From a virus, in the UHGV virus genome UHGV-0144805: 31,052 bases of DNA. One strand, 5' to 3'. This document shows, piece by piece, positions 3,001-4,343 of this stretch. How positions within the stretch are numbered: the first letter of the stretch is position 1; every line of letters begins with the position of its first letter. Position numbers: made by a program.

Positions 3001-4343
3001 GACTGGCAAGAGGATTATTGATGCAACGGAAACTAACTAAGCGTAATAAAAATTGGTTGAGCGACATGCTGAAAAAAGCCAATCGCAACCATATGTACCT
3101 CAACGACTGGCTATCAATTAAAGGTAATCTCAGTGATGCAAAAATGATCGACAGACATGTTGCGCGCTATGGTGTTTCACTTGTCTTAGAAAAGGCTGAA
3201 TTAGTATTTTCGGAATATTATTCCATTCCGCAAATTAGCTCCAAAGGAAAAATATGTGGCTATGTGCTCAAACATAAAAGCAAGCTGGATGAGCTTTTAG
3301 TCAGGGAAAAGGAGACGCAATGAACATCCTGATCATTGGGCGAAAATTTGAAGCTATCAGTGATGTGAAAACATATACGGAAATGTGGGCTTACAACCTG
3401 GCCTGCGCCTTTAGTGAGGCTGGGGTAACATTGCAATACCATCGTCCATATTCTCCTGGCGTCGAAAGCCCGGAGGATTATGTTGAAGCTGTGTTGACCG
3501 CTGCGCTCTCGTGTTCTGCGAAAGCCATTTTAGCGCCAGGATTGCGGTATTTTACTACGGTGCCCAGGGAAATAGGCGTGCAACTGCGTCGTCGATTCAC
3601 TGGATGGGTAGCTCAGGTATACGACGGTTCTATGCTGGATTCGGCACCAGTTGATATTACTTTTACTGTCCGCGATGATACCTGGCGGTACCTGGATAAT
3701 CCCGGCAGGTTAGAGCGTCATAATCGCTTTAACAAACATGTTGGATGGGCAGCGAATCAGGAGCTGTTCCATCTGGAAACCAAAACAGACGATGTTCTGC
3801 GTATTTTTGTAGACCACGCTGCATTTGATGTTAGTGGGTTTGATCACTCCTTAAGTATCCTTATGAACCTTCAGCGTCTGACTGTTCCGTATGAGGCCAG
3901 AACGTTGACCGATGACGGATTGGTTACCATTGATCCGGGGAATATTTCGGTAACTCCATACAGACGGACGCCGGTACCAGCAACCGAATTTGCAGCTGAA
4001 TTGCGTAAGAGTGATGTTTTTATTGTTACGCATCCCGAAAGCCTTGGATTAACTGTTCTTGAGGCGGCAATGTGTGGGGCGTTGGTATTAACGCCTCCCG
4101 ATTGCCTTCCGCCAGATCGCCTGGCTTTGGTGAACCATATGGTTATCAAGTCGCGGATTGATTGGGATGAGGTTATTGCTCGCGTTGATCGCGTGAAAAA
4201 TGCTGAAAAGGTCCAGTGTCACACCTGGTCGGCAATTGCGGAAAAGATGCTTGAGACGTTTATCACGCAGAAACCGTCGCGCGGTAACGGATAAAAAATT
4301 GAACCCGTCATAACAGAAAAGCCCGAACGCCGGGCTTTTCTTA

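Follow-up and report, generated by a model that had tools for sequence, protein, structure and literature searches.

What does a glycosyltransferase do behind the replicative helicase gene of a P1-like phage-plasmid? This question is raised by a stretch of 31,052 nucleotides from the virus genome UHGV-0144805 (the window, by which the whole analysed stretch is meant), where an open reading frame (ORF) of 324 amino acids lies downstream of the helicase gene ban. In this study, we identify this ORF as the P1 gene dbn and report that dbn homologs of other phages are accompanied by counterparts of three further P1 genes, pmgO, pmgP and pmgQ, which in the window are located 6-8.5 kb from dbn, beyond the baseplate and tail genes. 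The overall best explanation, to which we give a probability of about 55%, is that Dbn is part of a glycan-building cassette that is dispersed in P1 and probably acts on a virion protein.

Identity and predicted fold of Dbn

The ORF is present as the initial annotation described it, reading from ATG to TAA, and an AAGGAG Shine-Dalgarno sequence is located 5 nucleotides ahead of its ATG. The gene and its principal motif are positioned as follows.

3320..4294, + strand: dbn (glt in P7), encoding a predicted GT-B, GT4-like glycosyltransferase of 324 amino acids
4037..4063, + strand: E240-x7-E248 (EX7E), predicted to bind the nucleotide sugar and to form the catalytic site in the C-terminal Rossmann domain; from the family alignment

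P1 dbn (NC_005856, 72683-73657) aligned to the ORF over 100% of the query length with 96.1% nucleotide identity, and megablast against phage records gave 18 full-length matches of 95.7-97.9% identity, P1, P7 and RCS47 among them. At the protein level, the ORF is 97% identical to a cluster named 'glycosyltransferase family 4 protein'. The gene order is that of P1, with tciA, tRNA-Ile2 and ban upstream and genes 5, 6, 24, 7 and 25 convergent downstream, the baseplate gene 5 being the one that faces dbn in both. The full-length nucleotide identity of 96% and the common neighbours identify the ORF as dbn itself, and the same gene is found in P1, P7 and RCS47. It has been annotated as a possible glycosyltransferase since 2004: the P1 record lists P1_gp078 (YP_006544.1) with 'function unknown, possible glycosyltransferase', the P7 record names the gene glt ('encodes putative glycosyltransferase'), and the RCS47 record reads 'putative glycosyltransferase, Dbn'. 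The initial annotation had assumed that P1 carries no glycosyltransferase at this position and had placed the ORF downstream of a dbn-like gene, which implied a new gene between dbn and gene 5. Alignment to P1 overturned both points, as the ORF is dbn and not a gene that follows it, and is a conserved P1 gene with an existing annotation. Among 5426 complete E. coli genomes, dbn was present in 477 (~9%).

The start of the gene was compared by aligning window positions 3018..3330 to positions 3977..4001 of the P1 locus (L001; homologous loci and proteins are designated here by L and P numbers). The start annotated in P1 is an ATG that overlaps the ban stop codon and adds 8 residues (MQWNEEKP), and the same ATG-CAA opens a different ORF, of 100 amino acids, in the window. 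There, dbn begins at the internal ATG that corresponds to M9 of the P1 annotation. Since the MQWNEEKP extension was seen in no other family member, the ATG at 3320 is probably the conserved and true start, and the annotated P1 start should probably be corrected.

Dbn is almost certainly a GT-B glycosyltransferase. An indexed search returned 74 homologs, down to 28% identity. The C-terminal third of the protein contains THPESLGLTVLEAAMCG, in which E240-x7-E248 is followed by a glycine, and the complete motif, E240-S-L-G-L-T-V-L-E248-A-A-M-C-G253, is encoded at nucleotides 4037..4078. This is the motif on which the initial annotation had based its GT-B assignment, and E240, G243, E248 and G253 proved to be invariant in a 55-sequence family alignment, together with D102, W143, A144, D165, H166, D175, F234, T237, H238 and S241. 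The usual phosphate ligands of GT4 enzymes are a G-R/K pair after the first strand of the C-terminal domain; from the alignment, the invariant D165-H166 at the end of this strand appears to replace them. The Dbn profile aligned its EX7E block to that of the solved glycosyltransferases 8xsg and MshA (3c48/3c4q), and its matches to PDB sequences were confined to the area around this block.

An AlphaFold2 model built on the same 55-sequence alignment had a predicted local distance difference test (pLDDT) score of 95.0 and a predicted template modelling (pTM) score of 0.90. It consists of two Rossmann-like domains of alternating strands and helices with a cleft between them, the arrangement that characterises the GT-B fold. 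Foldseek searching of this model against PDB, the check proposed for the GT-B claim, gave 99 matches at E≤0.001. The best 50 listed are without exception glycosyltransferases of the GT-B fold, with sucrose-phosphate synthase (6kih, 1.8e-9), GlgM, BshA and PimB' at their head. The DNA glucosyltransferases of phages came lower in the structural ranking (HY126, 15.4; T4 alpha-glucosyltransferase, 15.2; T4 beta-glucosyltransferase, 12.0).

At the sequence level, Dbn stands apart from known families. The Pfam domain Glycos_transf_1 (PF00534) scored 25.1 bits on Dbn, below its gathering cut-off of 26.4, and covered residues 221-307 only; of the 55 family members, 19 matched it at E≤0.01, the strongest of them at 1.2e-5. 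The N-terminus, which reads MNILIIGRKFEAIS, lacks a glycine-rich loop of the GGxG type and gave no Pfam domain at E≤1, so that no Glyco_trans_4 or Glyco_transf_4 domain was detected, and an NCBIfam scan gave glycosyltransferase matches below threshold only. An exhaustive profile search of 1.84 billion representative sequences recovered 424 proteins at E≤0.001 (194 at E≤1e-30) and did not reach the canonical GT4 enzymes. In comparison with BshA, MshA, PimA, PimB', GlgM, sucrose-phosphate synthase and WaaG, Dbn has the EX7E motif in common with them at 10-15% identity; it is shorter (324 against ~350-450 amino acids), and its N-terminal half shows no GT4-type domain. The model thus describes Dbn as a compact, divergent and soluble two-domain GT4-like GT-B enzyme that is peripheral to GT4 in sequence.

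Neighbours of dbn homologs in other phages

The genes that recur with dbn are encoded in the window as follows, ppp lying among them.

10230..10892, + strand: pmgO, DUF115/MptE-like (sialyltransferase-like), candidate cassette partner; weak PF01973 match, E=4.9e-5
10790..11416, + strand: pmgP, DUF115/MptE-like paralog of pmgO, candidate cassette partner; weak PF01973 match, E=3.2e-4
11398..12090, + strand: ppp, gene for a lambda-type metallophosphoesterase (phosphatase)
12087..12788, + strand: pmgQ, predicted GT8-like GT-A glycosyltransferase, from the DxD motif, profile, AlphaFold2 model and Foldseek

Scans of IMG/VR with whole-family and intermediate-group alignments recovered almost only P1-like loci, and the divergent loci were reached with sub-family alignments only. 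The neighbourhoods of 19 non-P1 loci were then surveyed with phmmer. When genes flanking dbn homologs were compared with the window by tblastn, they matched pmgO (42%), pmgP (50%) and pmgQ (39%). PmgQ is the most constant neighbour of Dbn homologs: it adjoins them in 12 distinct non-P1 loci (L004, L006, L010, L012, L170-L173 and L175-L180 have PmgQ beside Dbn), where Dbn identity is ~30-57%. Genes similar to PmgO or PmgP were found upstream of dbn in six loci (L010, L171, L172, L174-L176), the pmgP homologs being those of L171, L172 and L174-L176 and that of L010 described below. The L174 contig is incomplete, and L171 and L172 were judged by phmmer, as gene calls there placed antisense ORFs over dbn.

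All four genes are contiguous in L010, a P2-like contig with otherwise standard P2 genes. They are coupled to the portal gene, which they follow directly, and overlap in the order pmgO-pmgP-dbn-pmgQ; the Dbn homolog is 46% identical, with the pmgP counterpart directly upstream of it and that of pmgO two positions upstream. In the phage-plasmids L008 and L098, a pmgM-pmgO-pmgP-pmgQ-pmgS block is located 5 kb from dbn. One protein, P0152, combines two cassette members in a single chain of 522 amino acids, of which residues 22-220 are PmgO-like (E=2.5e-24) and residues 219-521 Dbn-like. Weak matches indicated other fusions of the Dbn domain, to an alpha/beta-hydrolase-like domain (P0205) and to a domain with the DxD sequence 'WIDADG' (P0235). 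In Dbn fusions of 520-555 amino acids, an unannotated C-terminal domain of ~190 residues with a YHYI..R..K.PWP motif is present (P0223, P0229, P0239, P0240, P0246 and P0250); this extension had no Pfam match. From these gene contexts, Dbn likely works together with PmgQ, PmgO and PmgP.

The partners themselves have sugar-related annotations or predictions. RefSeq labels of P1 read 'alpha-2,3-sialyltransferase' for pmgO and 'glycosyltransferase' for pmgQ. PmgO and PmgP weakly match the same part of PF01973 (MptE-like/DUF115), as do the counterpart gene of L176 and the P0152 fusion, and have a VGSGPS...IIAVN motif in common; searches of PDB sequences with either protein gave nothing meaningful. 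PmgQ (233 amino acids) has invariant D79-L80-D81 and H208-G209, and its profile matched the GT8 structures 6mw5 (E=3.2e-6) and 5gvv. Its AlphaFold2 model (pLDDT 93.5) had Skp1 alpha-galactosyltransferase (6mw5), glycogenin, LgtC, WbbM and GlyE as best Foldseek matches. PmgQ shares the GT-A fold, DxD and H-G..P motif with glycogenin, LgtC, Skp1 alpha-galactosyltransferase and GlyE, at 11-17% identity, and itself has no Pfam GT8 match; on structure prediction it is a GT8-like GT-A glycosyltransferase. A GT8-like neighbour designated F9 was considered as a relative of PmgQ and was kept as a separate family, as hhalign against the PmgQ profile indicated no relationship.

The position of the cassette was informative in three independent lineages, where it lies inside late structural operons. 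In the myovirus loci L172, L175 and L176, the portal, ClpP-type protease, major capsid, head-tail attachment and tail sheath genes are followed by a gene for a proline-rich protein, DUF115-like, GT8-like, Dbn-like and PmgQ-like genes, an FkbM methyltransferase gene, small ORFs and a gene of 771 codons that is taken to be the tape measure. In the siphovirus L170, the cassette is found between the head-tail connector and the head-closure and tail genes, and the P2-like L010 is the third case. Dbn homologs of 31-35% identity were also found in large phage contigs with terminase, a RecA-like gene and a DEAD helicase, in a sugar cluster that comprises cytidylyltransferase-like/cupin, GT8- and GT47-like, pyruvyl transferase and methyltransferase genes.

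Three further observations were made at these loci. The proline-rich protein between tail sheath and cassette (L176, 5895-6521; L175, 5992-6522; L172, 1113-1676) has repeats of P-D-H-x-L-P-G-x-x-P-x-P-E/D-H and a conserved C-terminal block; neither a Pfam match nor a window homolog was found for it. In this lineage it could serve as a cassette substrate or a decoration protein; Ser/Thr-rich C-terminal tails were looked for on the capsid and sheath proteins near the cassette in L175 and L176, and none were found. In L094, a contig of 96.7 kb, the Dbn homolog shares its two upstream genes with that of L008 and is located between two giant autotransporter genes, at 114-4484 (- strand, 1456 amino acids) and 9837-16775 (+ strand, 2312 amino acids). 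Autotransporter adhesins are glycosylation substrates in E. coli. Finally, ppp fills the slot between pmgP and pmgQ in P1 where the L010 cassette has its dbn homolog, and in L008 and L098 pmgP and pmgQ are adjacent with no ppp between them, an arrangement that points to replacement or shuffling of cassette genes.

Candidate acceptors of the proposed glycan

During lytic growth, Dbn, PmgQ, PmgO and PmgP would act in turn in the cytoplasm, each enzyme taking a sugar from a nucleotide-sugar donor, so that a short oligosaccharide would be assembled by the four on one acceptor common to them. In Dbn, the donor would be held by E240 and E248, and the anomeric configuration would probably be retained. 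The acceptor would most likely be one or more virion proteins. This acceptor is favoured because the cassette is located in the head and tail operons of three other lineages, often beside sugar methyltransferases, and taken by itself it is the leading candidate at odds somewhat under even. On the virion proteins (sheath, tube, capsid or fibres) the product would be a short, sometimes methylated oligosaccharide. A broader proposal is more tentative: that an unrecognised Dbn/PmgQ/PmgO/PmgP cassette, widespread in phages of Gram-negative bacteria, decorates virion proteins, and that P1 particles are glycoproteins.

Glycosylation of the virion has a known parallel. Mycobacteriophages are, to our knowledge, the only established case of it. 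The work of Freeman et al. (2023), as summarised in PMC12619734, describes phage glycosyltransferases that are dispensable for growth and glycans that are carried by capsid and tail-tube subunits at their C-termini. The systems are alike in having dispensable glycosyltransferases encoded by the phage, and the cassettes described here lie in head and tail modules with sugar methyltransferases; they differ in that the hosts here are Gram-negative, and the likeness is one of gene context. A CRISPR interference screen found dbn, pmgO, pmgP and pmgQ to be non-essential for plaque formation (PMC10695390), as expected for an accessory modification. Neither Dbn nor PmgO, PmgP or PmgQ was found in the particle in cryo-electron microscopy (cryo-EM) studies of P1, which fits enzymes rather than structural 'morphogenetic' proteins.

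Several points weigh against a virion-protein acceptor. The same cryo-EM studies, with a best map of 3.2 Å for the baseplate and others of 3.7-7.2 Å, never mention glycans or sugars, and we know of no report of a glycan on P1 virions; glycans on flexible termini or fibres would be invisible in such maps. In P1, dbn is apart from pmgO-Q and in a different operon, and in L094 and L182 a Dbn homolog was found with no PmgQ detectable within 8 kb. The invariance of D102, W143 and A144, residues of the N-terminal acceptor domain, across phages of presumably different hosts is easier to reconcile with a universal acceptor or a shared glycan intermediate than with a protein site that is specific to a lineage. 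Lastly, GT4 and GT8 are the main families of lipopolysaccharide (LPS) core synthesis, and an envelope target fits the folds equally well.

The strongest competing explanation follows from this last point and is unlikely. Dbn, PmgQ, PmgO and PmgP would add sugars to the LPS core, enterobacterial common antigen (ECA) or another undecaprenyl-linked glycan at the inner membrane face. P1 adsorbs to the LPS core; the additions would change this receptor and so prevent superinfection or the adsorption of progeny to debris. WaaG (8b5s), WaaB (6y6i), WbnH, PglA-like enzymes and LgtC are among the structural matches, predicted sigma-70 promoters for dbn fall within ban in the P1 record, and the L010 cassette borders an accessory region with a KAP NTPase. 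Against this, expression as annotated in P1 is C1-repressed or late, hence lytic and not lysogenic: the ban operon is under C1 operators, the pmgL-Q region carries C1 operators, and pmgL has a late promoter. A position inside late structural operons (L170, L172-L176) is unusual for conversion genes, the acceptor domain conserves its residues in phages whose hosts presumably differ, and there is no flippase of the Wzx or GtrA type or membrane partner nearby.

An acceptor that is a small molecule or RNA is improbable. It would be a metabolite, as for BshA, MshA and sucrose-phosphate synthase, or a tRNA base such as queuosine. Sucrose-phosphate synthase, BshA, GlgM and tetrahydrobiopterin glucosyltransferase, all among the top structural matches, act on small acceptors; the acceptor-side residues are invariant across diverse phages; and the ban operon of P1 includes genes for tRNA-Asn, tRNA-Thr and tRNA-Ile, with tRNA-Ile2 at 1295..1370 in the window. 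Rank of the fold among GT4 enzymes is, however, no predictor of the acceptor, and outside P1-like elements no tRNA or metabolic-pathway context was seen. The constant partners are other glycosyltransferases and sugar-modifying enzymes, and a PmgO-Dbn fusion exists.

Glycosylation of DNA as a protection from restriction is very improbable. Like the T4 alpha- and beta-glucosyltransferases and the 5-hydroxycytosine arabinosyltransferase of phage HY126 (PMC13326640), Dbn is a phage-encoded protein with a predicted GT-B fold. The DNA glycosyltransferases nevertheless rank below ~30 GT4 enzymes among its structural matches and are not its closest relatives, and no hydroxymethylase or hydroxylase gene that could supply a hydroxymethylated or hydroxylated base was found beside dbn homologs in any locus examined. 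The cassette is present in a P2-like contig that otherwise has standard P2 genes, and several glycosyltransferases with sugar methyltransferases suggest a complex glycan. We know of no hypermodified base in P1 DNA, which relies on Dar proteins.

The ban-dbn junction and implications of the cassette

The remaining features surround dbn in its operon.

1657..3021, + strand: ban, DnaB-type replicative helicase, located upstream in the operon; Pfam matches to DnaB_C (E=8.7e-108) and DnaB (E=2.7e-35), collinear with P1 ban
3021..3323, + strand: accessory ORF of 100 amino acids between ban and dbn; PHROG 12809, unknown function
4315..4341, no strand assigned: GC-rich hairpin flanked by A and U tracts, likely bidirectional terminator, from RNA folding

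The window differs from P1, P7 and RCS47 in the 100-amino-acid ORF. In the alignment, the ban-dbn junction measures 302 nucleotides in the window and 27 in the three reference phages, a net insertion of ~275 bp, and the additional DNA is the ORF, which all three lack. Its ATG shares the A of the ban stop codon (TGATG), and the dbn ATG overlaps its stop codon as ATGA at 3320-3323. The overlap that the initial annotation had noted at the dbn start is thus real, and the ORF overlapped is this insertion rather than dbn or a dbn-like gene. Downstream, the hairpin between the convergent dbn and gene 5 folds with a free energy of -17.6 kcal/mol (z=-5.4) on the + strand and -18.1 kcal/mol (z=-3.1) on the - strand; it was found by folding and was not listed by a simple consensus terminator scan. 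The C1-repressed ban operon of this element ends with dbn, which is translationally coupled to the 100-amino-acid ORF and through it to ban. The TGATG and ATGA overlaps, with the hairpin terminator after dbn, make co-expression of dbn with the helicase plausible.

The initial annotation had gone further and tied a stand-alone sugar transferase to replication by way of this coupling. That idea is very unlikely to hold, in spite of the overlaps that join ban, the 100-amino-acid ORF and dbn here and the overlap of the annotated dbn start with the ban stop codon in P1: the linkage of ban and dbn is confined to P1-like elements, no Dbn homolog of 57% identity (L008) or below was found beside a DnaB-type helicase, the homologs elsewhere being beside sugar-handling genes, the junction accommodates an entire extra gene in 17% of relatives, and both ban and dbn are dispensable. 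Judged by comparative context, Dbn does not appear to serve replication.

The 100-amino-acid ORF had no nucleotide match by blastn in 50,697 phage records. It was found in 52 PLSDB plasmids (51 from Escherichia, namely E. coli and E. albertii, and one from Salmonella), in 80 of the 5426 E. coli genomes, and in 14 of 80 P1-like IMG/VR loci (~17%). An index of 5.8 billion proteins contained near-identical relatives only, and identities of 34-38% were seen to small hypothetical ORFs of one Cronobacter phage, one Vibrio phage and Vequintavirinae phages, those of the Vequintavirinae lying in gene arrays of early type. Neither this ORF nor Dbn matched a defence system in PADLOC. The slot between ban and dbn is variable, and the small gene that it holds here may have an accessory or anti-defence role; the P1 junction looks like a deletion derivative of the form that bears the insertion, or the reverse.

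Elsewhere in the window, the tRNA gene at 1295..1370 (+ strand) was called tRNA-Met (CAT) by ARAGORN, where the P1 record has tRNA-Ile2 (CAT, ileX-like); the tRNA-Asn and tRNA-Thr genes of P1 correspond to positions upstream of the window start. For 9000..31052, the best phage records (RCS47, P1, JL22 and SJ46) cover only 62-71%, at 96-98% identity, and the right-hand part therefore holds segments unlike reference P1.

In the literature searched, nothing was found on the function of Dbn or of PmgO, PmgP and PmgQ. Since dbn and its glycosyltransferase prediction were already known, the ORF as first reported is not new. What appear to be new are the link of dbn to pmgO, pmgP and pmgQ, the prediction from structure that PmgQ is GT8-like, the location of the cassette in modules of structural genes in other phages, and the recognition of the 100-amino-acid ORF as a variable insertion between ban and dbn. 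The comparative result moves dbn from an orphan 'possible glycosyltransferase' to a member of a four-gene set. If virion glycosylation is true, a function would be assigned to four P1 genes that for 20 years have carried the labels 'putative morphogenetic' or 'unknown'. If phage-plasmids of the P1 type glycosylate either their particles or the host surface, this would bear on host range, on how therapeutic phages are recognised by the immune system or serum, and on the biology of P1-like elements.

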